Origin: Candidatus Micrarchaeia archaeon
Lineage (GTDB): Archaea > Micrarchaeota > Micrarchaeia > Anstonellales > VGKX01
Direction of reading: 5' to 3'
DNA length: 64,000 nt
Assembly: GCA_041650395.1 (NCBI GenBank)
Contig: JBAZLG010000003.1
Span: 310,917-374,916 of the forward strand
Below, one piece after another: positions 24,042-56,338 of the stretch. The position numbers and the translations under genes were made by a program. Below the pieces are notes generated by a model, which was given only the letters and a program-made list of their open reading frames with translations, made no database searches and was not told where the DNA came from. Every line of letters starts with the position of its first letter. Position 1 is the first letter of the stretch.

Positions 24042-24545
24042 TCACTCCCCCGTACCCTCCTGTACTGGTTTTTCCTTTTCCAGGTATATGTTCGCGATTG
24101 ATATGGCCTGCTTTGCCTTGGCCTCTTCCATGCCAAGCAGCAAGCCGAAGAAGACAAGCTCGCGTTCGGACGGGGCCATGAATTCCTCCCGCGCCATAGA
24201 GCACAGGATTACGCGCGCGCCTTCCTTCTTGCACGCCTTGATGAACAGCCGCGCCATGCCCAGCTTTTTTGCGATTGAAAACGGGCGGTTCTCGCCGCCC
24301 ATGACGAAATCGGAGAGCGGGAACGCGAAAGCGCCGTTGTTTTGCGCCACAGCCTTTATGGCCCCCGGGTCAAGCTCGTAGGATTTCAGGAAAAAAACAA
24401 GGGGCTTTTTTGCCATGTTGCCCAGGCTCTTGGCGTCCGCTGCGTAGATTATCCTGCTTTTGCAGTCATTGGCATTGTAAACAGACGAATAGCCGAGCTG
24501 GCGCAATGTGCCAATGTGCGTGAGAGCAATGTCGTAATATGCCAT
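24042..24545 (-). CDS. rnp3: RNase P protein component 3 (Rpp30), probably starting at the internal Met (MAYYDIALTH); compact, about 167 aa
   Basis: C-terminal ILCSMAREEFMAPSERELVFFGLLLGMEEAKAKQAIS matches the archaeal Rpp30 C-terminus ([34 protein letters not shown]). It is adjacent to pop5 as in the conserved rpp30-pop5 operon. The N-terminal 38 residues of the longer ORF (24042..24659) are hydrophobic junk and overlap the rpl15e 3' end. Confidence 0.65.
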   Translation of the reverse strand: MAYYDIALTHIGTLRQLGYSSVYNANDCKSRIIYAADAKSLGNMAKKPLVFFLKSYELDPGAIKAVAQNNGAFAFPLSDFVMGGENRPFSIAKKLGMARLFIKACKKEGARVILCSMAREEFMAPSERELVFFGLLLGMEEAKAKQAISIANIYLEKEKPVQEGTGE

Positions 24546-24639
24546 GATGACCAAGGGATATGCGCTGGAAAGAATAAAAAGCGGATTAAACGCCAGGAAA
24601 AAATGAAATTGAAAAAAAGAAAAAAGTGAAGGCAGGCCT

Positions 24640-25152
24640 TCAAGCCTGCTCGTAGCCATTGCCCCTGCCCCTCAAGCCCCTGTGCTTTTTGCCCGAGGAT
24701 GTCAGGCCCCTGAAGCCCCTGCCCATGTGCCTGTCTGTGCCATAGTAGACTTCGGAATCGAACATGAGGACTTCAAAGAACTGGTACTGCCCGTCCCTGC
24801 CAACGAAGTAGGAGTTGAGGACGTCCATGTTCCTGTAGCGCCTTGACGCCTTTTCCTCGGCTATTGCCTTGTAGGACTTGCCCGGGACGCGGTAGGCGGC
24901 GTTCTTTGCCGGCTTCCTTCCACCCCACGGGTGCGGCCTCTTCCTCTGGCCCCTGCCGGTCTTTACCCTGACGACGATTATGCCCTGCTTCGCCTTGTAG
25001 CCAAGCGAGCGTGCGCGCGCGAGGTTGGTGGGCTTTTCTACCCTGACAACCGTCGGCCCGCGCCTCCAGGTGGTAACGCGTTTCCTGTATTCGGGCGAGC
25101 GTTCCTTGTATTCCTTTTGGAAAGCCTCGCTAATGTACTTGTACATTCCCAT
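24640..25152 (-). CDS. rpl15e: Ribosomal protein L15e
   Basis: MGMYKYISEAFQKEYKER...LARARSLGYKAKQGIIVVRV...VLNSYFVGRDGQYQFFEVLMFD...FRGLTSSGKKHRGLRG matches L15e throughout. ATG chosen at 25152 (MGMYKY, cf. eukaryotic MGAYKY). TATA-like AATTAAAAAGGGG lies about 30 bp upstream. Confidence 0.9.
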   Translation of the reverse strand: MGMYKYISEAFQKEYKERSPEYRKRVTTWRRGPTVVRVEKPTNLARARSLGYKAKQGIIVVRVKTGRGQRKRPHPWGGRKPAKNAAYRVPGKSYKAIAEEKASRRYRNMDVLNSYFVGRDGQYQFFEVLMFDSEVYYGTDRHMGRGFRGLTSSGKKHRGLRGRGNGYEQA

Positions 25153-25651
25153 TCCAATCACCGTTGTGTTTTTTTGCCCCTTTTTAATTCGTTAATAGGG
25201 CTAGGCATCAAGACAATCAATGGACCAATCAAGGTTCAAGGCGAATCAATGCGCGAATCGGTTCAGGTAACGAACCCCACATTCCGAAAAGCTTCAGGAT
25301 ATACGAATCAAGGGTATTTAAAAGTAGCGGGGCAACCTAAAAGTAAATAAAGAGGAAATAGCGAATTAATGATGGGATGAATATGGACAAAAAGAACTCC
25401 ACAATTCTATCTGGCAAACAACTTGAGAGATACATAAACTCCGTTGACAAGGCCATTGAAAAAAGTTTTGCCGCTAACAAAAAGGCGCTGGAATACCTGG
25501 CCAAGAGATAGTGCAACCTCCATGGAATTCAGAGAGCACCGAAAAAATCAGGCAAGACACTGGAAATGTCTCTAGCAACTCTTTTTAAATAGGAAAAAGC
25601 AAGTTGAATCCAGGAAAGGGAGGATAGCTTATTCCGCATAGGTGCGACTTA

Positions 25652-27187
25652 ATGCAAATAACCGAGATAGTCAATCACGAATCAATAACAAACTTTGCCG
25701 AAAGATTGTCTAACTATTACTCCAATGAAAAGAAGGGGACAAACAAGAAAGAAAAAGGACAATATTTTACGCCTGCGAGTATCGCGGCATACATGGCATC
25801 ACTCGCTGATGTTCAATCCGAATCGATAAAAATACTTGATCCGGGAGCAGGTCTTGGGATACTTTCAGTTGCATTAATAGAAAAAATAAGAGAAAAAAAC
25901 AAGCGGCTAATCAATGTAGAATTGACATTATACGAGAACGACGAAAAAATTATACCTTACTTAAACGAAGTAATGAATATAATGAAGAAAAGACTTTCGA
26001 AATATAATGTAGGATTTAATTACGAAGTCAGACAAGAAGACTTCGTTGCATCTAATGTAAAATACATAACACCAAAACTTAATTCTTTTAACGAAGCGGA
26101 ATATCCGAAATACGATATAATAATATCTAACCCGCCTTATTTTAAAATAAATAAAAAAGAAATTGAAACCTACGGAATCGAGCAAATAACTGCAGGCCAG
26201 CCAAACATATACTACATTTTCATGGCAATTGCGACAAACATGCTAAGCAATGAAGGCCAAATGATATTCATTACACCAAGAAGCTTTTGCTCTGGGTTGT
26301 ATTATAGCAGTTTTAGGAATTGGCTAATCAAAAGAGTCCATTTCTCACAGGTCCACATATTCAAATCCAGGAAAAACGTGTTTGCAAAAGACAAGGTACT
26401 ACAGGAGAATGTGATAACCAAATTTACAAAGACCAAGCCACTAAAGATTGTCATGTCTACAAGTGAAGGAAGAGACATGGACGAGATAAAAAAAACAGAA
26501 GTAAATGAAGACGACATAATCTACAAATCTAACGGGCACATATTCTTCAGGTTGCCTGCGGATAAGGAAGAACTTGCAATAATAAGAAAACTGGACAAAT
26601 TGCCGATGAATTTCTACAAACTAGGGTACAAAATATCAACAGGAAAAGTAGTAGCCTTTAGAAATAGTGAATATTTGAAAAAAGAGATTGGTGAAAAAGA
26701 CATTCCGTTGATATGGATGCATAACATAAGAAATATGAGGATACTCTGGCCGAGCGAGAAAAATGGGAAGGCTAGGGCGATAGAAAAAAACGAAAAAACA
26801 AAAAAATTGCTAATAGAAAACGGCAATTACGTTGTTATGAAAAGATTTACCACAAAGGAACAGAAAAAAAGATTTGACGTTGCGCTTGTCACAGATGAAG
26901 ATTTTAAAAAACAAGGATATTTTGCATTAGACAATATGCTAAATTACATATATTGCCCTGGCAAAAAGCTGAATAGGGAAACAATAAGTGGCATTGCAGA
27001 ATATTTATCTCTCCCAATAGTGGACAGATATTTTAGGATATTAAACGGCCATACTCAGGTCAATGCAAATGAAGTCTACGCGCTTCCATTTCCAGAAGCA
27101 AAAAAATTAGAAAAAATAGGAAAGAACACTGATAAATTTGCTAATGAAAAACAGGAAAGAATATTGGAACAAATATTAACAAATTAG
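25652..27187 (+). CDS. N6-adenine DNA methyltransferase, gamma class (PstI/BsuBI/Eco57I-like), 511 aa
   Basis: QYFTP motif, motif I ILDPGAGLGILS, motif IV IISNPPYFKI. Size matches M.PstI/M.BsuBI-type enzymes. Confidence 0.85.
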   Translation: MQITEIVNHESITNFAERLSNYYSNEKKGTNKKEKGQYFTPASIAAYMASLADVQSESIKILDPGAGLGILSVALIEKIREKNKRLINVELTLYENDEKIIPYLNEVMNIMKKRLSKYNVGFNYEVRQEDFVASNVKYITPKLNSFNEAEYPKYDIIISNPPYFKINKKEIETYGIEQITAGQPNIYYIFMAIATNMLSNEGQMIFITPRSFCSGLYYSSFRNWLIKRVHFSQVHIFKSRKNVFAKDKVLQENVITKFTKTKPLKIVMSTSEGRDMDEIKKTEVNEDDIIYKSNGHIFFRLPADKEELAIIRKLDKLPMNFYKLGYKISTGKVVAFRNSEYLKKEIGEKDIPLIWMHNIRNMRILWPSEKNGKARAIEKNEKTKKLLIENGNYVVMKRFTTKEQKKRFDVALVTDEDFKKQGYFALDNMLNYIYCPGKKLNRETISGIAEYLSLPIVDRYFRILNGHTQVNANEVYALPFPEAKKLEKIGKNTDKFANEKQERILEQILTN

Positions 27188-27201
27188 GCAGGGGTTGTTT
27201 C

Positions 27202-28131
27202 ATGAGGAAAGTTGACGATGCACTGGAAATCTTGAGAGAGCTTAACGTGCCAAGAAAACAACAGAATGAAAGGACAGCCCTGACTCTATTGGCTTTACTC
27301 TCGCTAAAAAACAACAAGCCTTGGAAAAGTGCCAAGAAAACTTTGATAAGAATACATGACATCATGATTTTCATAAAAAATGAATACAAGAAGAAATACG
27401 CAGAAAACACCAGAGAAACAATAAGAAGACAAAGCCTTCACCAACTGGAAAAAGAAGTAGGAATTGTTGAAAGAAATTCAGATGACCCAACAAGACCAAC
27501 AAACAGCCCAAATACAAAATGGGCGGTTACAAAAGAGGCACTTGAAACAATAAGAAGCTACGGGACAAAACAATGGAAAAAGAATGTGGACAATCTGATG
27601 CAAAAGCGAGGAAGAAGTGAAAGCTCCGGCTGGCAACGCGCAAAACCCGCACAAGGAGTAATTATAGATGAGAAGGAATATCCCTTGTCGCCAGGAAAAC
27701 ATAATAAACTCCAAATAGACATAATTGGAAACTTCAGGGAAATTTTTTGCAAAGACGCAGAAGTGCTTTATTTCGGTGACACCGCTAAGAAAATGCTCTT
27801 CTTAAATGAAAAGAAATTGAAGGAGATAGGACTGAAGATAACAAAACATGAAATATTGCCAGACATTGTCCTACTGGACAATGCCAAAAATAGACTTTAT
27901 CTTATAGAAGCAGTTACATCACATGGCCCAGTATCAAAGAAGAGACAAATTGAATTGACAGAGTACTTCGCAAAAGTCGGCTTTAAAAAAATTTTTGTCA
28001 GCGCTTTCCCCGACTTTAAAGAATTCAAAAGGCATATAGATGACATCGCTTGGGAAACAGAAGTGTGGATAGCTGAAATGCCGGAGCACATGATTCATTT
28101 CAACGGCGACAAGTTCCTAAAAATAGACTGA
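27202..28131 (+). CDS. Candidate cognate restriction endonuclease (BsuBI/PstI family), 309 aa
   Basis: It starts 15 bp after the methyltransferase stop on the same strand in the AT-rich island. The size and the N-terminal winged-helix-like region followed by a C-terminal acidic/Lys-rich region are consistent with the R.BsuBI/PstI family. The assignment is from gene context and memory only, with no alignment. Confidence 0.5.
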   Translation: MRKVDDALEILRELNVPRKQQNERTALTLLALLSLKNNKPWKSAKKTLIRIHDIMIFIKNEYKKKYAENTRETIRRQSLHQLEKEVGIVERNSDDPTRPTNSPNTKWAVTKEALETIRSYGTKQWKKNVDNLMQKRGRSESSGWQRAKPAQGVIIDEKEYPLSPGKHNKLQIDIIGNFREIFCKDAEVLYFGDTAKKMLFLNEKKLKEIGLKITKHEILPDIVLLDNAKNRLYLIEAVTSHGPVSKKRQIELTEYFAKVGFKKIFVSAFPDFKEFKRHIDDIAWETEVWIAEMPEHMIHFNGDKFLKID

Positions 28132-44258: not shown

Positions 44259-44399
44259 AATGCCCGCTTTGCACTGCCACGCGGCTGCCGCGCCTTCCCG
44301 GCGCAAAAGCCGGGCCTGCCATTCTGCTTATTATTTTAAATTATAGCCGGCAATTCCTATACCCTGAAAAAGCAACGGGTTGTGGGGCGGAGAATCATA

Positions 44400-46943
44400 A
44401 TGCAACTAACTCCAGGCATGCGCCAGTACATGGAGGTCAAAGGCAAGCATCCGGACTGCCTAGTGCTATTCAGGATGGGCGACTTCTTCGAGACTTTTTA
44501 TGACGACGCGCGGACAGTCTCGCGCGAGCTTGACATAGTGCTCACGTCAAGGGGCAAGGACGAGAAAAAGGCGCCGCTTGCCGGGATACCGTTCCACGCG
44601 CTGGACAGCTACCTGGCAAAGCTTGTCAAAAAGGGCTACAAGGTGTGCATCGTAGAGCAGCTTGAGGACCCGAAGCTTGCAAAGGGGCTTGTGAAGAGGG
44701 GAGTGGTAAGGATAATCACCCCGGGCACGGTTGTCGAGGAGAACATACTTTCCAAGGATTCGAACAACTACATCTGCGCAGTGGCAAAGGACAAGGATAC
44801 CTACGGCATCGCGTTCGCGGACATATCTACAGGCGAATTCGTGGCGACCCAGGCGGAAGGCGAGGCCAAGCTGCTCTCGGAAATCGAGAAATTCAAGCCA
44901 ACGGAGGCCATAATACCCGCGGCGCTAGCCGACCATTCGATAGCGAAGTCCATCAGGGACAGGGGCGCGTTCGTGAATTCATTCGACGAGCGCCATTTCT
45001 GGGAGGACAGCGCCAAAAAGGAGCTGATGGGGCATTTCAATGTCTCGTTCCTGGACGGGTTCGGGCTTGCGGGGAAACCCGCGGCTGCCTGCGCAGCAGG
45101 CGCTCTGCTCGCCTACCTGAAAAAGCACCAGATGTCCCAAATCACGCACGTCAAGAAAGTGTCCTACTACTCTCCCGAAGGATTCATGCTTCTAGACTCG
45201 GCGACCATCAGGAACCTGGAGATTGTGAGGAACATCAGGGACGGCTCGAGCCAGGGAACGCTTTTTGAAATGCTTGACAGGACCAAAACGCCCATGGGCA
45301 CGCGCACGCTCAAGCGCTACCTACTCCAGCCGCTGATGGACATCAGGGAGATTGAAAAAAGGCACGACGCAGTCTCCGAACTCGCAGGCAACACTTTCGC
45401 AGCGGAGAAAATCAGGGAGGCGCTTTCCCGCTTCGGCGATTTGGAGAGGATAAACGCCCGCGTGTCGCTTGGGACCGCCTCCCCGCGCGACCTGGTGGGG
45501 CTCAAGGCGTCGCTTGCCGCGATACCCGCCCTCAAAAGGGAGGTGGCGCCGTTCAAGTCGGGGCTGCTTGCCCAGGCGGCCGGGATGCCGGGCATGGAGG
45601 AACTGCATTCACTTCTGGACTCGGCCATAAAGGACGAGCCCGCGGCAACCACTAGGGAGGGAAACATCATCAAGGAAGGCTATAACGGCCAGCTCGACGC
45701 GTTGAGGAAATCCGGGAGTTCCGCACGCGCGGAAATTGAAAAAATGGAGGAAGAAGAGAAGGCGCGCACGGGCATCAGGACGCTCAAGATAAAATTCAAC
45801 AGGGTTTTCGGCTATTTCATTGAAATTTCCAACTCATACCTCAAGCAGGTGCCGCCCGAATACCAGCGCAAGCAGACGCAGGCCAACAGCGAGAGGTTCA
45901 CCACGGATAGGCTAAAGCAGATAGAGACTGGCTATCTCGGCGCGCAGGAGAAAAGCATTGCCCTAGAATACGAGCTTTTCATGGAAGTGCTCGCAAAGGC
46001 AGCGCTAAATTCCGGGAAGATGCTCGAGGCTGCCGGGCAGATAGCCTCGATAGACTGCATGCTCTCCCTTGCACAGGCGGCGGCCGAAAACGGCTATGTC
46101 AGGCCTGCCATGTCGGAATCATACGCGATGTCGGTCGTGAACGGCAGGCACCCCGTGGTTGAGAGGATTGCGCCCGGGTTCGTGAAAAACGACTGCGCGT
46201 TTTCCGACGCGGAGAAAATGAAGATAATCACGGGCCCGAACATGGCTGGCAAATCCACATATCTGAGGCAGAACGCGCTTGCCATACTCATGGCGCAGGC
46301 GGGCAGCTTCGTCCCGGCGGACAGCGCCGCCATGGGCGTCGTGGACAGGATATTCTCGCGCGTGGGCGCGTATGACGACCTGTCCATGGGGCAGTCCACG
46401 TTCATGGTTGAAATGAGCGAGTGCGCGAACATACTCAACAATGCCACGGCAAGGTCCTTTGTCATACTCGACGAGGTAGGGAGGGGCACAAGCACGTACG
46501 ACGGATTCGCGCTTGCGACGGCCATTGCGGAGCACCTGTATTCGAAAATAGGCGCGAAGACCCTCTTCGCCACGCATTATCACCAGCTAAACGGCCTCGC
46601 AAAGTCTTTCCCGGGGATAAGGAACTACCACGCGCTTGTCAGCGAGGACAACGGCGAGATAACCTTCCTGAGGAAAATCGTGAAGGGCGGGACAGACAAG
46701 AGCTATGGCATACACGTGGCAAAGCTTGCGGGCGTCCCGGACGGCGTGATACGCCGCTCGCGCGAGGTCATGGCTAGGATAGAATCGGAAAACGGCGTGC
46801 CAAAGTCCGTCGAGTCGACCACCACCACGAAGTCAGACATTGAACTGCACGAGCCTGACACGGGCAAGAAAATCAAGATTCGCGAGGAAAAGACCGAGAC
46901 GAGGTACAAGGACAAGGGGCAAAAGACGCTAATGGACGCATGA
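44400..46943 (+). CDS. mutS: DNA mismatch repair protein MutS (bacterial MutS1 type)
   Basis: MQLTPGMRQYMEVKGKHPDCLVLFRMGDFFETFYDDA N-terminus. Walker A GPNMAGKSTYLRQ. ...STFMVEM..., DEVGRGTSTYDG. Start chosen at the ATG 18 nt inside the track ORF; a GGCGGAG SD-like motif lies upstream. Confidence 0.92.
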   Translation: MQLTPGMRQYMEVKGKHPDCLVLFRMGDFFETFYDDARTVSRELDIVLTSRGKDEKKAPLAGIPFHALDSYLAKLVKKGYKVCIVEQLEDPKLAKGLVKRGVVRIITPGTVVEENILSKDSNNYICAVAKDKDTYGIAFADISTGEFVATQAEGEAKLLSEIEKFKPTEAIIPAALADHSIAKSIRDRGAFVNSFDERHFWEDSAKKELMGHFNVSFLDGFGLAGKPAAACAAGALLAYLKKHQMSQITHVKKVSYYSPEGFMLLDSATIRNLEIVRNIRDGSSQGTLFEMLDRTKTPMGTRTLKRYLLQPLMDIREIEKRHDAVSELAGNTFAAEKIREALSRFGDLERINARVSLGTASPRDLVGLKASLAAIPALKREVAPFKSGLLAQAAGMPGMEELHSLLDSAIKDEPAATTREGNIIKEGYNGQLDALRKSGSSARAEIEKMEEEEKARTGIRTLKIKFNRVFGYFIEISNSYLKQVPPEYQRKQTQANSERFTTDRLKQIETGYLGAQEKSIALEYELFMEVLAKAALNSGKMLEAAGQIASIDCMLSLAQAAAENGYVRPAMSESYAMSVVNGRHPVVERIAPGFVKNDCAFSDAEKMKIITGPNMAGKSTYLRQNALAILMAQAGSFVPADSAAMGVVDRIFSRVGAYDDLSMGQSTFMVEMSECANILNNATARSFVILDEVGRGTSTYDGFALATAIAEHLYSKIGAKTLFATHYHQLNGLAKSFPGIRNYHALVSEDNGEITFLRKIVKGGTDKSYGIHVAKLAGVPDGVIRRSREVMARIESENGVPKSVESTTTTKSDIELHEPDTGKKIKIREEKTETRYKDKGQKTLMDA

Positions 46944-46952
46944 GGGCAGGGT

Positions 46953-48695
46953 TTGGTTAAAATGGGAAAAATAAGGTTCCTTGACAAGGAGACTATAAAC
47001 AAGATTGCCGCTGGCGAGGTAATAGAGAGGCCGGCCTCGATAGTGAAGGAGCTTGCCGAAAACGCGCTTGACGCCGGCGCAACTGAAATAGGCATAGAAG
47101 TGCGCGATGGCGGCAAGAGGTTCATCGCAGTTTCAGACAATGGCAGCGGCATGTCCGCGGAGGACGCGCGCGTGTGCGCCCTGTCCCACACCACAAGCAA
47201 GCTGTCAGACCTCTTCGACATCAGGACGCTTGGGTTCAGGGGCGAGGCCCTTGCAAGCATGGCGGCAGTCTCGCGCATGGGCATAACCACATGCGACGCC
47301 GAGGGCGAGAAAAAGGGCGCTGGCATGGAACTCGCGATAGAGGCGGGGGAGATCAAGTCCGAGAAAAAGGCCGGGCCAAGCGTCGGGACGCGCATAGTGG
47401 TCGAAGACCTGTTTTTCAACACGCCCGCGAGGAAAAAGCACCTCAAGGGCGCCGAGGTGGAGTTCCAGCACATCCTCTCCCTGGTCTCAAACTATTCCAT
47501 CGCATACCCCAAAGTTGTCTTCAGGCTGGTTTCCGACGGCAGGCAGGCGGTTGTGACTCCGAGGGCCGCAAGCATGAGGGACAGGATAACCACGGTCTGG
47601 GGCGCTGACATTGCAAAAAACCTCGTGCCCGTGTCGTACAAGGACGGGTTTTGCGCGATATCCGGGTTCCTTGGCAAGCCCTACATAACAAAGCCCGATA
47701 AGTCCATGCAGGTCATATTCGTCAATGGCAGGCTGGTGAAATCCGAAACCGTGTCGAAGGCGCTTGCGGAAGCGTACAAGACAATGCTGTTTTTGGACAG
47801 GCAGCCTGTCTGCGCGCTTGAATTCGAGATTGACTTCTCAAAGATAGACGTGAACGTGCATCCCCAGAAAAACATCATCAGGATAGAGAGGGAGGACCTG
47901 CTCTATAATGCCGTGTTCGAGGCAGTGAAGTCCGCATTCGCCGCGCAAAACCTCGTGCCTTCGGTAAGCCCCGACAATGTGACACGGTCAAGGGCAGTGG
48001 GGCAGTACGGCCTCGACAAGGGGACGCAAAGCACGCTTAGCGCCCGGACAGGCGAGGCGGTGGCGCACGCGCCCGCGACGGCCGACGCGCAGGCAAGGCT
48101 TGAATCGTTCATGCCAAAAAAGCTCGGCCAGCTTTTCATGCTAGGGCAGGCCAACAGGACATACCTGCTTGCGGCAACGCCGGAAGGGATTGCCATATTC
48201 GACCAGCACGCGGTCGAGGAGAGGGTGAATTTCGAGAAGTTCCTCTCGCAGGTGAAAGATTCAAGCGTGCAGAAAAACAGCCTGATTGCGCCCATTGTGC
48301 TCAATGTCGGCCCGGCAAAGGCCGCCGCGATAAGGCAGAACATGGAAAGCCTTGAGAGGCTTGGGATGGGCATTGTGCAAAAGGGCGAGGCGACTTTCGA
48401 GATAACCCACATGCCCCTGCTGCTTGGCATTCCCGGGAAAGACCTGGCAATGGAGCTGATTGCGGCTGTTGAGGACTCCAGGGGCACGCTCGAGGAAAGG
48501 ATAGAGGGGAAAATAGCCACAAAGGCCTGCCGCGCGTCGATAAAGGCGGGCGACATTCTTTCAATGCCCCAGATAAAGGAGCTTGTGCTTAGGCTTGACG
48601 CGTGCAAAAAGCCGTATACCTGCCCGCACGGGAGGCCAACCGGAATCAGGCTGACCTATGCAGACCTCGAGAAGAAGTTCAAAAGGGTGGAGTAG
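46953..48695 (+). CDS. mutL: DNA mismatch repair protein MutL
   Basis: GHKL ATPase motifs: NKIAAGEVIERPASIVKELAENALDAGAT, DNGSGM, GFRGEALASM. C-terminal dimerisation region. Confidence 0.92.
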   Translation: MVKMGKIRFLDKETINKIAAGEVIERPASIVKELAENALDAGATEIGIEVRDGGKRFIAVSDNGSGMSAEDARVCALSHTTSKLSDLFDIRTLGFRGEALASMAAVSRMGITTCDAEGEKKGAGMELAIEAGEIKSEKKAGPSVGTRIVVEDLFFNTPARKKHLKGAEVEFQHILSLVSNYSIAYPKVVFRLVSDGRQAVVTPRAASMRDRITTVWGADIAKNLVPVSYKDGFCAISGFLGKPYITKPDKSMQVIFVNGRLVKSETVSKALAEAYKTMLFLDRQPVCALEFEIDFSKIDVNVHPQKNIIRIEREDLLYNAVFEAVKSAFAAQNLVPSVSPDNVTRSRAVGQYGLDKGTQSTLSARTGEAVAHAPATADAQARLESFMPKKLGQLFMLGQANRTYLLAATPEGIAIFDQHAVEERVNFEKFLSQVKDSSVQKNSLIAPIVLNVGPAKAAAIRQNMESLERLGMGIVQKGEATFEITHMPLLLGIPGKDLAMELIAAVEDSRGTLEERIEGKIATKACRASIKAGDILSMPQIKELVLRLDACKKPYTCPHGRPTGIRLTYADLEKKFKRVE

Positions 48696-50222: not shown

Positions 50223-51941
50223 TTAGAACCTGTCCCGCCTGGTGTAACTCGTGTGCAGGAGCATCTCCGCCTTTTCAGAGCCGGGATGGTCGAGGAACTC
50301 CGAGTATATCCGCTTCACTACGGGGTTTTCATGCGAGCGGCGCAGGGGCAGCTGCCTGTCGGCCAGGTAAATCGCCTCCGCGCGCTTTTGCAATGTGTCT
50401 GGAGCCTGGTAAATGGGCTGCCCGCCGCCGCCGATGCACCCTCCGGGGCATGCCATCATTTCTATGAACTGGTAATCGTCTTTAACTTCAAGGAGTTTCC
50501 TTATGTTCATGCCCCCGCTGGCGCAGGCGAATTTCACTTCCTTGCCCTTGATTTGAATGGAGCCTTCCTTGATGCCTTTCATGCCCCTTAGCTGGTCGAA
50601 CTCGAGCCTCGATACTGCCTTGCCCTCCGCGAACTCATAGGCGGTCCTCAATGCGGCTTCCATGACCCCGCCGGAAGCGCCAAACACTGCGCCCGCGCCT
50701 GTGGACACGCCAAGCGCCGGGTCGAAGTTCTCGTCTGGGAGCTTGGCGAAGTCGACCTTGTTCATCTTGATGAGCCTGCCAAGCTCGCGAGTGGTGAGCA
50801 CGTAATCCACCGCGGAAGCCATTTCATCCCGCGTGGACTCGAATTTCTTGGCAGTGCAGGGCATGATGCTCACGACCACGATGTCCTTCGGCTTTATGCC
50901 CGCCTTTTTCGCCCAATATGTCTTTGTGAGCATGCCAAGCATCTCGTGCGGGCTCTTGCACGTGGACATGTGCGGGAACAGGTCCGGGAAGAAATGCTCC
51001 ATCATCAGTATCCATGCTGGGCAGCAGGTGGTAATCATCGGGAAAGTGCCGCCGCGCTCGAACCGCCTTAGGAATTCGGACGCCTCCTCCATTATGGTCA
51101 TGTCGGCGCCGAGGTTGACGTCGAATACATAGTCGAAGCCAAGCCGCCGCAGGGATGATACCATCTTGCCGGTCACAAGCGCGCCCGCGCCCATGCCGAA
51201 AAGCTCGCCAAGCGCCGCCCTGATTGAAGGCGCTGTCTGCGCCACTACGACTTTTGAATCGTCCGCGAGCGCCTCCCTGACCTCTTCAATGTGCGACCTC
51301 TCGGAAATGGCGCCTACGGGGCAGTTGAGTATGCACTGGCCGCACCTGATGCATGCCACGTCCGCCAGGTGCTTGCCGCCATAGGGCGAGACGTGCTCGC
51401 TGTAGCCCCTGCTTGAGAAATCTATGGCGTAAACGCCCTGTATTTCCGCGCAGACCTTGACGCACCTGCCGCAGTTTATGCACTTGTTGTTGTCGCGTAT
51501 CACGGAGCTGCCAAGGTCGGGCTTGTAATTCTTGAGGACTTCGAAGCGCGTGAACTCTATGCCCACCTCGTTGTAAACGCCGCAAATCTCATTGTCGTCC
51601 GTGACGGAGCACGACTGCGGCTTTGGAATCATCAGGTTGATGTTGAGCTGCCGTGCCCTCTTCACCCTCTCGTTTGAAGTGTTGACTACAGAGCCCTGCC
51701 TAGGCCTTGTCGAGCATGCGGGCACGAGTTTCCCGTCCATCTCGACCATGCAAATCCTGCACCTGCTTTCAGGGAACAGGCTCGCGTGGTAGCAAAGAGT
51801 AGGGATTTTGATTCCCTTTTCCTTGCATATGTCAAGCAATGTCTTCGAGCCGTCGACCTGCACGCCTGCCCCGTCAAGGGTTATTTCCATGGGCCTTGGC
51901 GCCGCGTCCTTGCCGCCGTCGGGTTCTATCCTGATTTTCAT
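50223..51941 (-). CDS. hydA: [FeFe]-hydrogenase catalytic subunit HydA (N-terminal 2Fe-2S domain, two 4Fe-4S domains, H-cluster domain)
   Basis: H-cluster signature motifs are all present: L1 TTCCPAW, L2 MPCTAKKFE, L3 EMMACPGGCIGGGGQP. N-terminal CYHASLFPESRCRIC (2Fe-2S) plus CINCGRCVKVC and CIRCGQCILNC (4Fe-4S). ATG chosen at 51941 (MKIRIEP). The track ORF begins with a TTG immediately abutting the hydB stop. Confidence 0.85.
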   Translation of the reverse strand: MKIRIEPDGGKDAAPRPMEITLDGAGVQVDGSKTLLDICKEKGIKIPTLCYHASLFPESRCRICMVEMDGKLVPACSTRPRQGSVVNTSNERVKRARQLNINLMIPKPQSCSVTDDNEICGVYNEVGIEFTRFEVLKNYKPDLGSSVIRDNNKCINCGRCVKVCAEIQGVYAIDFSSRGYSEHVSPYGGKHLADVACIRCGQCILNCPVGAISERSHIEEVREALADDSKVVVAQTAPSIRAALGELFGMGAGALVTGKMVSSLRRLGFDYVFDVNLGADMTIMEEASEFLRRFERGGTFPMITTCCPAWILMMEHFFPDLFPHMSTCKSPHEMLGMLTKTYWAKKAGIKPKDIVVVSIMPCTAKKFESTRDEMASAVDYVLTTRELGRLIKMNKVDFAKLPDENFDPALGVSTGAGAVFGASGGVMEAALRTAYEFAEGKAVSRLEFDQLRGMKGIKEGSIQIKGKEVKFACASGGMNIRKLLEVKDDYQFIEMMACPGGCIGGGGQPIYQAPDTLQKRAEAIYLADRQLPLRRSHENPVVKRIYSEFLDHPGSEKAEMLLHTSYTRRDRF

Positions 51942-51965
51942 GTGGGTTCTCCGCCTTGCCGCCAA

Positions 51966-53102
51966 TCACGCTTTTGTCGGTTTTTTCTTGAGGTATTCGA
52001 TGTAATCGGGCATGAAATGCTCAAGCCCCGTGAGTATGTGGTTGCCCGCCGACTGCCCAAGGCCGCAGATGCTTGTGTCCTGTATGTGCCTTGCAAGCTC
52101 TTTCAGGTCAGCGAGGTCTTTCACCTCGCCCTTCCCGGACCTGATTTTCTTGAGGAAGTCGAGCACCCTGATAGTCCCTTCCCTGCAGGGCGTGCACTTG
52201 CCGCAGGACTCGTAGGTGTAGAATTTCGCAATGCTGTAGGATATGTCCACTATGTTCTGCTTCTCGTCTATGAATATTACGGAGTATGCGCCGTGCTGGC
52301 AGTTTTCCTTGCAAATCATGTCCGATGTTATGGAGGCGCCGTAGTCGACCGGCATTATCCCCCCAAAACAGCCAAACGACATAGCCTTGAGCCTGTTCTT
52401 GGGCCTTGCGATGTCGACCACGGTGGACATCTTCACTCCAAGCGGGAATTCGTACACTCCGGGGTTTGTGATGTTCCCGGAAAGCGAGAACATGCGCATG
52501 TCCGGGTTCCAGTCGTCATAGAGCATGGCCTGCGCGGCGCACGTGAGGGTCTCGACGTTGTTTATCACAGTCGGCTTGCCCCAGAGACCGTGGACTGTGG
52601 GGTGCGAGTCGTCCGGGCAGCCGCGGAATCCCATGATAGACTGGACAATGGCCGTCTTTTCCCCGCACACGTATGCCCCGGCGCCCCTGACAATCTCGAT
52701 GGACACGTCCATGCCGGACTTCGCCACTACGTCGTCGACGTGCTCCTGAAGCCTCTCGCGCAGGTAGCCATATTCCCCGCGCAGGTAGATGAACGCCCTT
52801 TTCGCCCCTATGGCGTATGCGCATATCAGCATCCCCTCGACCATTGTGCGGGGATTGTGCATTATGATGAACTTGTCCTTGAAAGTCCCAGGCTCCCCCT
52901 CGTCCGCATTGCAGATTATGAACCTCTCGTCCGCTTGCGCGGCCCTGCACGCGCGCCATTTCCTGCCGGTTGGGTAGGCGGCGCCGCCCCTGCCCACAAG
53001 ACCTTTTTTCTCTATGAGCGCGATAACTTCCTCCGGCTGCATGGCTTTCGCCTTGTCAAGCGCGTACATGTTCGTCTGCCTTAGGATTTGCATAACCATC
53101 AA
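51966..53102 (-). CDS. hydB: NuoF-like NADH-binding flavoprotein subunit (HydB), core-only form
   Basis: GLVGRGGAAYPTGRKW (NADH/FMN site) and the 4Fe-4S motif ESCGKCTPCREG. Its stop abuts the hydA start region. Confidence 0.85.
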   Translation of the reverse strand: MMVMQILRQTNMYALDKAKAMQPEEVIALIEKKGLVGRGGAAYPTGRKWRACRAAQADERFIICNADEGEPGTFKDKFIIMHNPRTMVEGMLICAYAIGAKRAFIYLRGEYGYLRERLQEHVDDVVAKSGMDVSIEIVRGAGAYVCGEKTAIVQSIMGFRGCPDDSHPTVHGLWGKPTVINNVETLTCAAQAMLYDDWNPDMRMFSLSGNITNPGVYEFPLGVKMSTVVDIARPKNRLKAMSFGCFGGIMPVDYGASITSDMICKENCQHGAYSVIFIDEKQNIVDISYSIAKFYTYESCGKCTPCREGTIRVLDFLKKIRSGKGEVKDLADLKELARHIQDTSICGLGQSAGNHILTGLEHFMPDYIEYLKKKPTKA

Positions 53103-53118
53103 CTATTGTTCCTGCGGC

Positions 53119-53574
53119 TCACTTGCGCTTTTTCTGCCCCGGCTTTTCGGAGGGCTTCGCAGCCTTTTCCCTGAATTTCCTGATTACCTGGAGAATGCGC
53201 TCCTCGCTCAGCTTGGTATGCGGGACGCCATTGACAAGCATGGCGGGAGCCTCGTCGCAGCAGCCTATGCACGACGTCTTGTAAAGCGAGAACATCCCGT
53301 CCTTTGTGGTCTTGCCGAACTTTGCCCCAAGCTCCTTTTCAAGGAACTTCTCCATTGTCATGCCGTTGTTTAGCACGCATGACGGGGAGCCGCATATCTC
53401 AATCACGTTCTTGCCCTGCGGCTCGGTCTTAAGCATTGTATAGAACTTGGCAGTGCCCCAGACCTGCGAGATTGGAATGTCCAGGTCTATCGCTATCTGC
53501 TTGAGAGCGTGCTCCGACAGGTAGCCGTGCCTCTCCTGCGCGTCATGGAGGACATTGAGTAGTATTTTCGCCAT
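53119..53574 (-). CDS. hydC: NuoE-like thioredoxin-fold [2Fe-2S] subunit (HydC)
   Basis: CGSPSC...CIGCCDEAP cysteine pattern typical of NuoE/HydC. It lies 16 nt upstream of hydB. Confidence 0.8.
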   Translation of the reverse strand: MAKILLNVLHDAQERHGYLSEHALKQIAIDLDIPISQVWGTAKFYTMLKTEPQGKNVIEICGSPSCVLNNGMTMEKFLEKELGAKFGKTTKDGMFSLYKTSCIGCCDEAPAMLVNGVPHTKLSEERILQVIRKFREKAAKPSEKPGQKKRK

Positions 53575-53726
53575 TTTCTCTCACCCATCGGAAACAACCG
53601 GCACGTCGTATTTAACGTTTGATTGGGCGGCTTTTAAACATGGCAGTCAATTGATACCCGCGAGGTAGCAATTTGGCAGGAAAAGAAGCTGCAGTGGCGA
53701 AAAGGCGGAAAAAGAACAGGGGAAAA

Positions 53727-54557
53727 TCAGGCTGGGGCGGGCATTTGGGCCGCAGGCTGCCTGCGCACAGGCAAGAAGCGGTTGAAGGCCGGCACGAGAA
53801 GGTTTGACGCCAGCAGCGCGACAAGAATCCCGTCAATCGAGAAAGGCAGGCTTGGCGACACGTAGCCGAACGCCAGGTTGAATGCCACCACGAAAATGCC
53901 CTGCGCAACAAGCGCGTTCCTTGAATAGCACGAGGTCTTAGGGTCTGTCAGCATGATGCCTGCGAAAAACGAGAACCCGAGCACTGCCGCAAGCATCTGC
54001 GCGTTTAGAAGGGACGCCGGGCCGAGGTATGCGGCAGATACCAGCAGGGTGCCTGCAAGGAACGCGAGGGTGATGGGCAGCTTGCCGATTTTCCAGCCTG
54101 CCGCTATGGCAAGCGCGGCTGCTATGAAACTTGCAGGTGCGGATATTGAGAGGCCCGCTGCCCACCAGCTGTCTGATGACTGGAATATAACCGCGGATGC
54201 GAGGAGCCCGAACGCCGCAGGGTTGAAAATTGGCCTTTTCATGTATGTGACAAGGTGCTTTGCGGCAATGGCAAGCGCCGCTGCTGCGACTGCAGACAGC
54301 GGGCCTGACGGGTAAATCACAAGAGAAATGATAAGGCCTGTGATAAGCCCGCTTTTGGGGAAAGCGTCCCTGCCTTTTAGGAACCTGTAGGCAAGATAGT
54401 CAAGCGCGAGAGCAGTAATTGGCGCCAGGACAAGCTGCCATGAAACAGCCCCGAACCCGTAATAGAGCCCTATGGCTGCGCAAACCGCAAGCGCGGCTAT
54501 GGTATAGTCATAGACGTTTATCGACTTGAATTTTTTTACAATGTCCAAGCAAAGCAC
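53727..54557 (-). CDS. RnfD/NqrB-family-like polytopic membrane protein (short, 276 aa), orphan
   Basis: IAAKHLVTYMKRPIFNPAAFGLLASAVIF resembles the conserved RnfD/RsxD segment ([26 protein letters not shown]). 7-8 predicted TM helices. No other Rnf/Nqr subunits nearby. Confidence 0.5.
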   Translation of the reverse strand: MLCLDIVKKFKSINVYDYTIAALAVCAAIGLYYGFGAVSWQLVLAPITALALDYLAYRFLKGRDAFPKSGLITGLIISLVIYPSGPLSAVAAAALAIAAKHLVTYMKRPIFNPAAFGLLASAVIFQSSDSWWAAGLSISAPASFIAAALAIAAGWKIGKLPITLAFLAGTLLVSAAYLGPASLLNAQMLAAVLGFSFFAGIMLTDPKTSCYSRNALVAQGIFVVAFNLAFGYVSPSLPFSIDGILVALLASNLLVPAFNRFLPVRRQPAAQMPAPA

Positions 54558-54652: not shown

Positions 54653-55144
54653 TCAGCCCGGGACCACGTAGCCGCTTGGGTCAACTATGACAAAGCTGTC
54701 GTCGCCAAAGGACGTCTCTCCGTTTGGCTGCGGGTCGTCGCCATAGCTTGTCTCTATTATGTAGAGCGAATAGCCCGGCTTGAGGCTTACCTGCGATGTC
54801 TGCCCTGTCCTTGCCACTGTGAGGTTCACAAGGATTGAGCCGTCAGCCTGCTGTTCCTGCGAAATGCCAAAGCCGCTCATCGCCCTTTTCGCAGCGTCGC
54901 TAAGCCCGCCGGGGGCTATCTGGAGAGCGTATGGCGCGTATGGCTCGTCGGAAAGTTTCACGGCGTTTGGGGCGGGGAGGCCCTGGGAGCCTGCGCCCGC
55001 CTGCGTGCCTGCCCCTGTTGCCGCATTGGGGGCCATGGACGAGGCGTGCTGGCTTGCAGCCTGCTGGGTGTTGCCTGTGCCTGTGCAGCCGAATATCAGC
55101 AGCATGCCCACTAGTATCGCTATTATGAAGTTCTTCATTTGCAT
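54653..55144 (-). CDS. Secreted lipoprotein-like protein (163 aa)
   Basis: Signal/lipobox-like MQMKNFIIAILVGMLLIFGCTG. Low-complexity Ala/Gly/Gln region. Confidence 0.5.
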   Translation of the reverse strand: MQMKNFIIAILVGMLLIFGCTGTGNTQQAASQHASSMAPNAATGAGTQAGAGSQGLPAPNAVKLSDEPYAPYALQIAPGGLSDAAKRAMSGFGISQEQQADGSILVNLTVARTGQTSQVSLKPGYSLYIIETSYGDDPQPNGETSFGDDSFVIVDPSGYVVPG

Positions 55145-55270: not shown

Positions 55271-55849
55271 TCAGTTTTTCTTCGCGTATTTCGCCTTAAG
55301 CGCTTCAATCCTGTCAAGCACTGCCTGTTCCGGCTTGTGGAGCCTTTCGCCAAGTTCGTAATATTTCCCAAAGGAATACGCAAGCGGCCGCTTTTCCTTG
55401 TCAGTGGATATGTCCACTATCTCGCCTATGAACATGGCATGGTCGCCAAGCTCCTTGATTTCAACGAGCCTGCACTCGATATTGGTGGCAGCGCCCCCGA
55501 CCATGAGGGCCCCGATTTTCCTGCCTGGATAGAAATTGCAGCCAAGCTCCTTGAGGACTGAAACCTTGTCGACCTCGTGGCCCGAACTCCCGCCTGCCAC
55601 GCTTGCAATCACGTTCTGGCCGGAAGCCGCCATGCTTATGCCGAATTCCTTGGAGGCTGTTATGTTCTGCGACGTGGCCTTGCCAGTCTTGTTCCCGCCG
55701 ACATGGACAGCCATGAGCGCAGGCGACCATGAAACGTAATACGTCCATTCCGCAGCCATTATGTCATGGCCGTTGGGGCCGTGGCTTGTTATCAGCCCGA
55801 CGCCGGTCACGAACTTGCTTGCCAGCTCATTTCCCCATCCTAGGTCCAT
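55271..55849 (-). CDS. Flavin reductase-like (FMN-binding split-barrel) domain protein
   Basis: VGLITSHGPNGHDIMAAEWTYYVSWSPALMAVHV...EFGISMA pattern typical of the flavin reductase-like family. Confidence 0.65.
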   Translation of the reverse strand: MDLGWGNELASKFVTGVGLITSHGPNGHDIMAAEWTYYVSWSPALMAVHVGGNKTGKATSQNITASKEFGISMAASGQNVIASVAGGSSGHEVDKVSVLKELGCNFYPGRKIGALMVGGAATNIECRLVEIKELGDHAMFIGEIVDISTDKEKRPLAYSFGKYYELGERLHKPEQAVLDRIEALKAKYAKKN

Positions 55850-55885
55850 TAGAAACGCCTCTCAAATCCGCGCGGCAGGGGCAGG

Positions 55886-56338
55886 TCAATTTACAATTAC
55901 CTTTCCCCTCATGCCCGGATGTATAGTGCAATAATAGTCATAAGTTCCGCTTGAATTGAACTGGTAGCTCCACGAACTCCCGGCGGGGATGTTGCCTGAA
56001 TTGAAAATCCCGGAAGTTGAAGTGGCAGTGTGCGCCACAGGGTCGCTGTTTGACCATGTAACAACCGTGCCCGCTGGCACCGTGATTTCCGCAGGCGAGA
56101 ACGCAAAGCCGCCTATGTCGACGCGGGCCTGCGCCGAAGGCGCGCCTGCGGGCTGGGGCGGCTGCGGGATAGCGCCATTGCCAGGCTGCCCGGAATCAGG
56201 CGGCGCGGGCGGCATTGCGCCCTGCCCCGTGTTTTGCGCGCCGGGCTGTTGGGGCGCGGCCTGGCCGCCAGTGCAGCCAAAAAGCAGGATTGCGGAAATA
56301 ATCAGCACGAATAAAAACCATTTGCCCATTGGAACCAC
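55886..56338 (-). CDS. Halocyanin/amicyanin-like type-1 blue copper protein (cupredoxin) lipoprotein
   Basis: Lipobox-like LLFGCTGG; Pro/Gln-rich linker. Copper ligands in DPVAHTATS (His) and CTIHPGM (Cys-x2-His-x2-Met). Confidence 0.75.
   Translation of the reverse strand: MVPMGKWFLFVLIISAILLFGCTGGQAAPQQPGAQNTGQGAMPPAPPDSGQPGNGAIPQPPQPAGAPSAQARVDIGGFAFSPAEITVPAGTVVTWSNSDPVAHTATSTSGIFNSGNIPAGSSWSYQFNSSGTYDYYCTIHPGMRGKVIVN

Follow-up and report, generated by a model that had tools for sequence, protein, structure and literature searches.

A short-HydB [FeFe]-hydrogenase operon of a Micrarchaeia archaeon, probably NADH-dependent and non-bifurcating, and its RnfD-like neighbour

The stretch of DNA analysed here, hereafter the window, comprises 64,000 nucleotides (positions 310,917 to 374,916 of contig JBAZLG010000003.1, 375,815 bp, in assembly GCA_041650395.1) of a metagenome-assembled genome deposited at NCBI under the name 'Candidatus Micrarchaeia archaeon'. 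Four co-oriented minus-strand open reading frames (ORFs) lie across positions 50223-54557: a gene for an RnfD-like membrane protein, followed by hydC, hydB and hydA (Table 1). The hydC-hydB-hydA operon is predicted to encode a soluble heterotrimeric group A [FeFe]-hydrogenase, and Pfam, NCBIfam and motif evidence agree with a first-pass annotation of the sequence that the operon is complete and belongs to an archaeal genome. HydA is recorded at NCBI as MFA5106608.1, '[FeFe] hydrogenase, group A'.

Table 1. Features of the hydrogenase locus, in window coordinates.
Feature	Coordinates	Strand	Description
hydA	50223..51941	-	group A [FeFe]-hydrogenase catalytic subunit, 572 aa from ATG 51941
hydB	51966..53099	-	short NuoF-like NADH/FMN/[4Fe-4S] subunit, 377 aa from ATG 53099
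hydC	53119..53574	-	NuoE-like [2Fe-2S] subunit with a thioredoxin fold, 151 aa; heads the operon
putative hydCBA promoter and ribosome-binding region	53581..53615	-	read by eye from the sequence; inferred
T-rich tracts resembling an archaeal terminator	53680..53726	-	TTTTCCCCTGTTCTTTTTCCGCCTTTTCGCC...CTTCTTTTCC right after the stop of the RnfD-like gene; by eye, inferred
RnfD/NqrB-like membrane protein	53727..54557	-	276 aa, without the Thr motif for covalent flavin mononucleotide (FMN)
putative lipoprotein, conserved upstream partner of the RnfD-like gene	54653..55144	-	163 aa, N-terminal hydrophobic segment followed by Cys

How closely the genes are packed depends on the starts chosen. The longest hydA ORF, 580 aa from a TTG at 51965 (50223-51965), has no exact database match, and both the recorded gene and the public gene calls use the ATG form of Table 1; hydB read from a TTG would span 51966-53102 (378 aa), and its public starts are at 53099 or 53093. 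The earlier remark on abutting stops and starts applies only if hydA is read from the TTG of its longest ORF. From the database ATG starts the spacers are 16-25 nt between hydC and hydB and 24 nt between hydB and hydA, and an AGGA- or GGAG-like sequence resembling a Shine-Dalgarno ribosome-binding site precedes the ATG of each of the two downstream genes. Ahead of the hydC ATG (53574) lie a TATA-like TTAAATA at 53615-53609 and a Shine-Dalgarno-like GGTGA at 53585-53581, and similar A/T-rich TATA-like boxes occur upstream of hydC in Micrarchaeota relatives in which hydC heads the operon.

Relatives were collected in a pattern-seeded scan of one genome per GTDB species; L numbers below are our handles for individual loci. 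The scan gave 53 DPANN loci with HydA 57-75% identical to the window protein (69-75% in loci labelled Micrarchaeota); the next tier, Clostridia, reached 45-48%. The DPANN loci span Micrarchaeota, Woesearchaeota, Pacearchaeota, Nanoarchaeota and Diapherotrites and include the closed Woesearchaeota chromosome CP070803.1, and the order hydC-hydB-hydA is found in every one with enough upstream flank (about 50 loci). Searching with HydB brought up at least 120 clusters of short HydB proteins with an identity of 58% or higher; all except two are 364-395 aa long, and every taxon named by their sources is DPANN or 'archaeon'. Trimeric [FeFe]-hydrogenases have been described in Woesearchaeota, monophyletic with those of Micrarchaeota (Huang 2021, Nat Commun, PMC8421398), and 'group A3' enzymes with HydB and HydC have been reported from at least six DPANN phyla (Greening 2024, Cell, PMC11216029); by these papers trimeric A3 is the most widespread archaeal [FeFe]-hydrogenase type. 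The window operon shares the gene organisation, the clade, the lack of HydEFG (in its case within the window) and the association with sugar fermentation of these published enzymes. It is an ordinary member of the DPANN HydABC clade, of low discovery value as such, and not the rare H2 module for an archaeon that had been supposed.

Pfam assigns HydA an N-terminal [2Fe-2S] domain (PF13510), a Fer4 dicluster with two [4Fe-4S] clusters, an H-cluster domain (PF02906, E=3e-93) and a small-subunit-like C-terminus (PF02256, E=2e-22). The protein scores 500.4 bits against TIGR02512 ('group A', cutoff 405.95); its best NCBIfam model, NF040763 ('NADH-dependent, group A6'), gives 730, below that model's cutoff of 765, and the closest PDB chain is T. 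kivui HydA1 (8a6t_A, E=9e-170). H-cluster motifs were defined as L1 (TSCCPxW-like), L2 (MPCxxKxxE) and L3 (ExMxCxxGCxxGGGQP), together with the four [4Fe-4S]H/bridging Cys. All three are found in the hydA translation as TTCCPAW, MPCTAKKFE and EMMACPGGCIGGGGQP, which with the TIGR02512 score places HydA in group A, as first annotated. The CCCC H-cluster ligands and the proton-relay Cys are kept, and the ligands of FS2, FS4A, FS4B and the H-cluster are invariant across the window HydA and 49 DPANN sequences. The His-ligated [4Fe-4S] site, HxxxCxxCxxxxxC, is gone from the window HydA, where the region reads PKPQSCSVTDDNEIC, and from DPANN HydA generally; many Woesearchaeota and Pacearchaeota HydA have no Cys at all at this position, and all 27 Clostridia HydA retain the site. 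The corresponding cluster of TmHydABC, A4, connects two protomers and has no place in the electron route between FMN and the H-cluster (A1, A2, A3, B2). As a separate observation, the 27 closest bacterial HydA (L057-L083) without exception read TSCSPGW rather than TSCCPxW in L1, the second Cys being replaced by Ser; these Clostridia proteins keep the other H-cluster Cys, and their partner HydB is long and of the bifurcating type.

HydB contains PF01512 and PF10589 only, with neither a Fer4 nor a [2Fe-2S] extension and no Cys outside the core, and its alignment covers residues 174-563 of the 630-aa T. kivui HydB and the full length of Aquifex NuoF; the initial description of a bare NuoF core was correct. 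Its signature sequences are ADEGEPGTFKD and GAGAYVCGE, and GGPSG is absent. HydC matches PF01257 (E=9e-41) and, always under cutoff, the NuoE and HoxE families of NCBIfam. Overall similarity was also tried as a way to tell NuoF from bifurcating subunits and was set aside: the PDB bit scores of HydB are 233-271 for both and do not discriminate, so the argument about bifurcation rests on HydB domains and signature residues.

Several published criteria bear on that argument. BfuB is defined in part by a 4Fe-4S ferredoxin-type domain (IPR017896), non-bifurcating homologues including that of S. wolfei are without B2-B5, and A202 and M204 of A. mobile are Bfu-specific (Schut 2022, PMC9304861). Bifurcating beta subunits have A/E232, M234, F367 (the Phe next to FMN, in GAGAF) and GGPSG, and non-bifurcating ones T/S, K/S/A, Y and no GGPSG (Losey 2020, PMC7311640); the discriminating criteria of Furlan 2022 (PMC9499530) for electron-bifurcating HydABC were used alongside these two. 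GGPSG is a motif of the SLBB domain, and the A/E and M residues occupy NADH-site positions (TmHydB 232/234, A. mobile A202/M204). As a domain criterion for the Bfu/HydABC family we took a HydB/BfuB with a C-terminal 2x[4Fe-4S] ferredoxin domain (B3/B4) and an N-terminal [2Fe-2S]. Table 2 compares the window and DPANN proteins with those of Clostridia on these features.

Table 2. HydB features in the window and DPANN loci and in Clostridia. Statements on DPANN motifs cover the sequences in which the motifs could be matched.
HydB feature	Window and DPANN	Clostridia
Length	355-394 aa in nearly all, one ORF call of 430	596-656 aa in 23/24, one of 447
NADH-site motif	ADEGEPG[T/S]FKD	ADEGDPGAFMD (24/24)
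FMN-side motif	GAG[A/S]Y[I/V]CGE	GAGAFVCGE (21/24)
GGPSG	absent	present (24/24)
Cys outside the core	none to one	9-10 C-terminal (24/24), 5-6 N-terminal (23/24)

The window HydB has neither the C-terminal nor the N-terminal cluster domain of the Bfu/HydABC family, and at the diagnostic positions of Losey 2020 it reads PGTFKD and GAGAYVCGE, without GGPSG. It thus has the features of the S. wolfei Hyd1ABC type of beta subunit, a NuoF core without extra clusters that carries T and K, a Tyr and no GGPSG, and none of the published criteria that we tested supports the possibility of electron bifurcation raised in the first-pass annotation. The Bfu signatures seen in the Clostridia set also occur in the PDB sequences of bifurcating proteins with known structures, namely A. 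woodii HydB, A. mobile NiFe-Bfu and NfnB, and A202 and M204 of A. mobile NiFe-Bfu coincide exactly with the 'GAFM' residues.

Compared with the bifurcating HydABC of T. maritima, T. kivui and A. woodii (PDB 7p5h, 8a6t, 7q4v), the window enzyme has the same three-subunit layout and would have the same core chain of FMN, HydB [4Fe-4S], HydA [2Fe-2S], 2x[4Fe-4S] and H-cluster, but its HydB, shorter by about 220-250 residues, has neither the N-terminal [2Fe-2S] nor the C-terminal B3/B4 and carries NuoF-type rather than Bfu-type signature residues, and its HydA lacks the inter-protomer His-ligated A4. With the non-bifurcating enzymes of the S. wolfei type it shares a beta subunit that is short, NuoF-like and devoid of additional Fe-S domains, T/S-x-K at the NADH site, the Tyr near FMN, the missing GGPSG and a separate NuoE-like gamma subunit; it differs in being archaeal and in the additional loss of the His-ligated [4Fe-4S] from HydA. 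Because the HydB extensions and the His-ligated cluster of HydA are both lost, the two candidate routes for ferredoxin electrons are absent, and NADH still has an unbroken route to the H-cluster. The missing Fe-S domains and NuoF-type residues of HydB and the lost HydA cluster therefore make NADH-only coupling the most likely. We consider it probable that the window HydABC is a ferredoxin-independent, non-bifurcating NADH:H+ oxidoreductase like Hyd1ABC of Syntrophomonas wolfei; a 2026 study of Caecomyces supports a Hyd plus bare NuoEF complex working as a non-bifurcating NADH-dependent hydrogenase. For the whole DPANN 'group A3' clade we lean, by a little, towards a distinct minimal lineage of non-bifurcating NADH:H+ [FeFe]-hydrogenases that has been mis-assigned as electron-bifurcating. 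Such a lineage may be marked by a short HydB without B1, B3 and B4, by loss of the His-ligated cluster of HydA and by ties to glycolysis and GAPDH. A literature search on non-bifurcating [FeFe]-hydrogenases and DPANN found no paper, though its coverage was incomplete and it is weak evidence of novelty.

Against NADH-only coupling stands the possibility of a canonical electron-bifurcating or confurcating group A3 HydABC, in which NADH and reduced ferredoxin are co-oxidised to make H2. By its gene arrangement, hydA contiguous with a NuoF-like hydB and a NuoE-like hydC, the operon falls under A3 as HydDB defines it; among PDB chains HydA is closest to that of a bifurcating enzyme, HydA1 of T. kivui; and fermenters that use pyruvate:ferredoxin oxidoreductase (PFOR) need a sink for ferredoxin. 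Huang 2021 and Greening 2024 both label the DPANN clade bifurcating or confurcating A3, whereas our sequence criteria point to a non-bifurcating enzyme, and the Losey, Schut and Furlan criteria themselves rest on few characterised enzymes. Ferredoxin could still enter by other ways, a separate ferredoxin docking on the [2Fe-2S] of HydA or a trans-acting ferredoxin-domain protein replacing the missing HydB domain. H2 formation driven by NADH is also thermodynamically hard unless H2 is very low. The CpI reference behind our table of cluster ligands was checked through its recovery of the expected ligands and, independently, through the T. kivui alignment. We nevertheless regard a canonical A3 enzyme as unlikely, if by no means negligible, since HydB is without the IPR017896-type ferredoxin domain that defines BfuB and has T/K, Y and no GGPSG where A/M, F and GGPSG would be expected, and HydA is without the His-ligated cluster that links protomers in TmHydABC. 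That the operon is present but its product inactive, or not a hydrogenase, in a genome unable to build the H-cluster seems improbable to us. Pfam detected no radical-SAM or HydF-type protein among the scanned ORFs of at least 150 aa, which bears out the earlier statement that HydE/F/G maturase genes are missing from the window and weighs against a working NADH-dependent enzyme as well; that search covered 64 kb of the genome only. On the other side, the window and the 49 DPANN sequences show no variation in the ligands of the H-cluster or in the proton-relay Cys, implying purifying selection. A full HydEFG set was found in 5 of 130 hydrogenase-bearing archaeal genomes, archaeal [FeFe]-hydrogenases whose genomes have no maturases were active when produced heterologously, and an alternative maturation route is likely (Greening 2024).

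For a non-bifurcating NADH-dependent enzyme we infer the electron path, the coupling to NADH only, the transcription units and the physiological role of hydCBA as follows. The FMN in the short, NuoF-like HydB would be the site of NADH oxidation, and electrons would pass through the single [4Fe-4S] of HydB to the [2Fe-2S] of HydA, on to its two [4Fe-4S] clusters and to the H-cluster, where protons would be reduced to H2; the [2Fe-2S] of HydC would lie off this path, like N1a of complex I. The enzyme would re-oxidise glycolytic NADH and would run only at very low H2 pressure, a requirement that would fit a symbiotic or syntrophic lifestyle.

The genomic surroundings of the DPANN operons, with their ties to glycolysis, agree with NADH-only coupling. 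Glycolysis genes lie within 10 kb of hydA in 26 of the 53 loci, namely ROK kinase in 19, triose-phosphate isomerase (TIM) in 16, aldolase in 13, PfkB in 13, phosphoglycerate kinase (PGK) in 10 and glyceraldehyde-3-phosphate dehydrogenase (GAPDH) in nine, and GAPDH directly follows hydA in L034, L038 and L050; the association was seen in no Clostridia hydA locus examined. In the window itself a ROK protein, glucose-6-phosphate isomerase (PGI) and a glycogen debranching enzyme lie 14-29 kb from hydCBA. Some Woesearchaeota and Pacearchaeota carry hydCBA within glycolysis clusters (L038 11711-13896; L034 6703-8897; L040 2414-4462; L014 11671-16240), with GAPDH and PGK directly downstream of hydA and also TIM, a DeoC-type aldolase, PfkB, ROK and a cupin-type PGI; a 682-aa ORF of L040 that matches GAPDH is a possible GAPDH-PGK fusion.

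Reconstructions of DPANN metabolism at present take HydABC to be bifurcating and to balance both NADH and ferredoxin. If coupling is to NADH only, H2 formation would be feasible only at very low H2 partial pressure, ferredoxin derived from PFOR would need another sink, and reliance on H2-consuming partners would be thermodynamically necessary, which would offer a testable basis for DPANN symbiosis. Were the whole clade non-bifurcating, DPANN fermenters would dispose of NADH directly as H2 and would depend thermodynamically on a host or partner that scavenges it.

The RnfD-like protein has no Pfam or NCBIfam match, even at E<=10. A profile built from it and six homologues matches the RnfD chains of C. 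tetanomorphum, A. vinelandii and A. woodii in the PDB (E=9e-14 to 6e-11) in two stretches, skipping RnfD residues ~135-201, which we take to be the region of the flavinylated Thr. The AlphaFold2 model (pLDDT 80.7, pTM 0.78) retrieves 15 RnfD/NqrB chains with Foldseek at E<=2e-4 (TMq 0.57-0.69) and nothing else below 0.4, and a 46%-identical homologue, P0002, passes the gathering score of PF03116 (55.3 vs 27.7). The 276-aa sequence holds no [ST]GA[ST] flavinylation motif, no other Rnf (A, B, C, E, G) or Nqr subunit was found among the scanned window ORFs, and hidden Markov models (HMMs) for FMN_bind and ApbE gave nothing in a six-frame translation of the window. The protein is a true but divergent and shortened RnfD/NqrB homologue; the original call was right, as a distant homology, and so was the observation that other Rnf/Nqr subunits are missing nearby.

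The same first-pass annotation had proposed that the RnfD-like protein might represent an undescribed membrane anchoring or coupling arrangement, that is, that it anchors HydABC to the membrane or couples it energetically as a new kind of membrane-bound [FeFe]-hydrogenase. Its gene lies on the same strand immediately upstream, 152 nt from its stop to hydC, an adjacency compatible with read-through co-transcription; the promoter and terminator calls that would separate them were made by eye. RnfD/NqrB subunits, moreover, belong to ion-translocating redox complexes, as the PDB matches show, and the presence of a different 4-6 transmembrane (TM) protein ('hyd6TM') beside hydCBA in 19 DPANN loci makes some membrane association conceivable. 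Yet tblastn and the family HMM found no RnfD-like gene within 10 kb on either side of hydA in any of 80 related loci (53 DPANN and 27 Clostridia), so that the adjacency is seen in the window genome only; the slot upstream of hydC is filled by the unrelated 4-6 TM gene in those 19 loci; the 152-nt spacer contains T-tracts and a TATA-like box; and no hydrogenase gene lies near relatives of the RnfD-like gene (27 metagenome loci and the contigs of three database homologues), where the recurrent partners are FMN_bind and ApbE or a small extracytoplasmic protein. With no covalent-FMN motif and no other Rnf/Nqr subunit nearby, membrane coupling is very improbable, and the RnfD-like gene is probably a neighbour rather than a subunit or anchor of the hydrogenase, which removes an unsupported idea of a new membrane-coupled enzyme. 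Still less credible is that the hydrogenase block is bacterial DNA brought in by misassembly or mis-binning, or was acquired horizontally very recently. [FeFe]-hydrogenases were long held to be bacterial and eukaryotic only, and bacterial-type MutS and MutL are encoded nearby. But the block is indistinguishable from flanking archaeal genes in composition (tetranucleotide correlation with the window 0.854, window median 0.871) and in GC content at third codon positions (GC3 0.75-0.77, like ProRS, MutS and RtcB); the same 27-kb region occurs in a contig of an independent ENA assembly; the operon lies within long DPANN contigs and a closed chromosome; and the closest HydA and HydB relatives are all DPANN, with bacteria at 48% or less. 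No bacterial donor clade was identified, the Clostridia loci being merely the best non-DPANN matches and differing in HydB architecture. Within the reach of composition and synteny, chimerism is ruled out, and hydCBA is native to a Micrarchaeia (DPANN) archaeon and was inherited vertically.

The composition test has power because a restriction-modification island at 25652-28131 (+) stands out as the strongest tetranucleotide outlier and serves as its positive control. This island, horizontally acquired, has a GC content of 0.34-0.38 against about 0.57 and a GC3 of 0.36-0.40; its genes specify a DNA methylase of the Eco57I/N6 type and a restriction endonuclease of the BsuBI/PstI family. The clearest evidence for an archaeal host within the window is an archaeal gene pair at 24042-25161 (-), ribosomal protein L15e (E=2.7e-47) adjoining a weak match to RNase P Rpp30; tRNA and Rfam scans of the window were empty and gave no RNA-based taxonomy. 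Further markers are an archaeal-type ProRS, RtcB and the bacterial-type pair of MutS (all five domains) and MutL, which are adjacent at 44382-48695 (+), about 1.5 kb from the hydrogenase operon, and are native-like in composition (GC3 0.74-0.76). The claim that the host is archaeal by every informational gene in the window thus holds for L15e, ProRS and the weak Rpp30 match and not for MutS and MutL.

The 4-6 TM gene beside hydCBA in 19 DPANN loci encodes 165-222 aa without a Pfam match, is absent from the window and is divergently transcribed from hydC in most of these loci (for instance L004 7785-8348, L030 7698-8261 and L047 6202-6747). It is presumably the 'hyd6TM' of Greening 2024, an uncharacterised neighbour of hydrogenase genes. 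The window locus lacks this neighbour of 19 relatives and, uniquely, has an RnfD-like gene in that position; the RnfD-like protein was considered as a hyd6TM variant and rejected (hhalign probability 0.1).

The RnfD-like protein belongs to a large family. A search with the family profile found 5813 representatives (E<=1e-3), with 624 reaching E<=1e-30; most of the best matches measure 235-300 aa. A metagenome scan seeded with a two-sequence alignment gave 27 loci. At least 14 of these 27 metagenomic relatives sit in unfused trios of FMN_bind (with SGAT), ApbE and RnfD-like genes, and this module, with a short RnfD-like protein of about 255-300 aa that has no flavinylated Thr, is widespread (loci L085-L111, L002). 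RnfD-like subunits without a flavinylation site, paired with an RnfG-like subunit, have been described (Meheust 2021, eLife, PMC8238504; 2024 preprint, PMC10979944). The window protein resembles these two-subunit 'Nqr/Rnf-like' complexes in its RnfD/NqrB fold, in the non-conserved flavinylated Thr, in its position apart from a full Rnf/Nqr operon and in the trios of its family relatives. It differs in having no fused NAD-binding PF00175 domain, no ApbE or FMN_bind gene in the window and, as partner, a putative 163-aa lipoprotein without a flavinylation motif. The published class requires an NqrF-type fusion and seems to cover the FMN_bind-ApbE-RnfD-like module only in part. Short RnfD-like proteins with FMN_bind and ApbE as partners thus make up a large family that has hardly been described.

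In the closest relatives of the RnfD-like gene, a small extracytoplasmic protein is encoded directly upstream. The 163-aa putative lipoprotein of the window has no Pfam match; its homologue in L084 is a protein of 179 aa encoded directly upstream of the RnfD-like gene there (BLASTP E=3e-9), and a 164-aa gene holds the same position beside P0002. As a divergent FMN_bind domain it was rejected (hhalign probability 0.7%). The RnfD-like protein and this partner may together form a degenerate member of the FMN_bind-ApbE-RnfD-like membrane electron-transfer modules. Just upstream of the 163-aa gene, at 55271-56338 (-), lie two further genes, one for a cytoplasmic protein resembling flavin reductases (PF01613, 192 aa) and one for a cupredoxin (PF00127, 150 aa), the latter a putative lipoprotein with an N-terminal hydrophobic segment followed by Cys. 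The flavin-reductase-like protein, the cupredoxin, the 163-aa protein and the RnfD-like protein could constitute a small module for electron transfer from NAD(P)H to the extracytoplasmic side; linkage of the first two to the RnfD-like pair is not conserved in the few relatives examined.

Far from the hydrogenase, a giant ORF of 4050 aa (1242-13394, -) has only weak Sde0182_C and CarboxypepD_reg matches and probably encodes a giant surface or adhesion protein; after it come a CARDB-domain protein of 566 aa (13399-15099) and an unknown protein of 534 aa. Giant surface or adhesion proteins have been reported in DPANN archaea.

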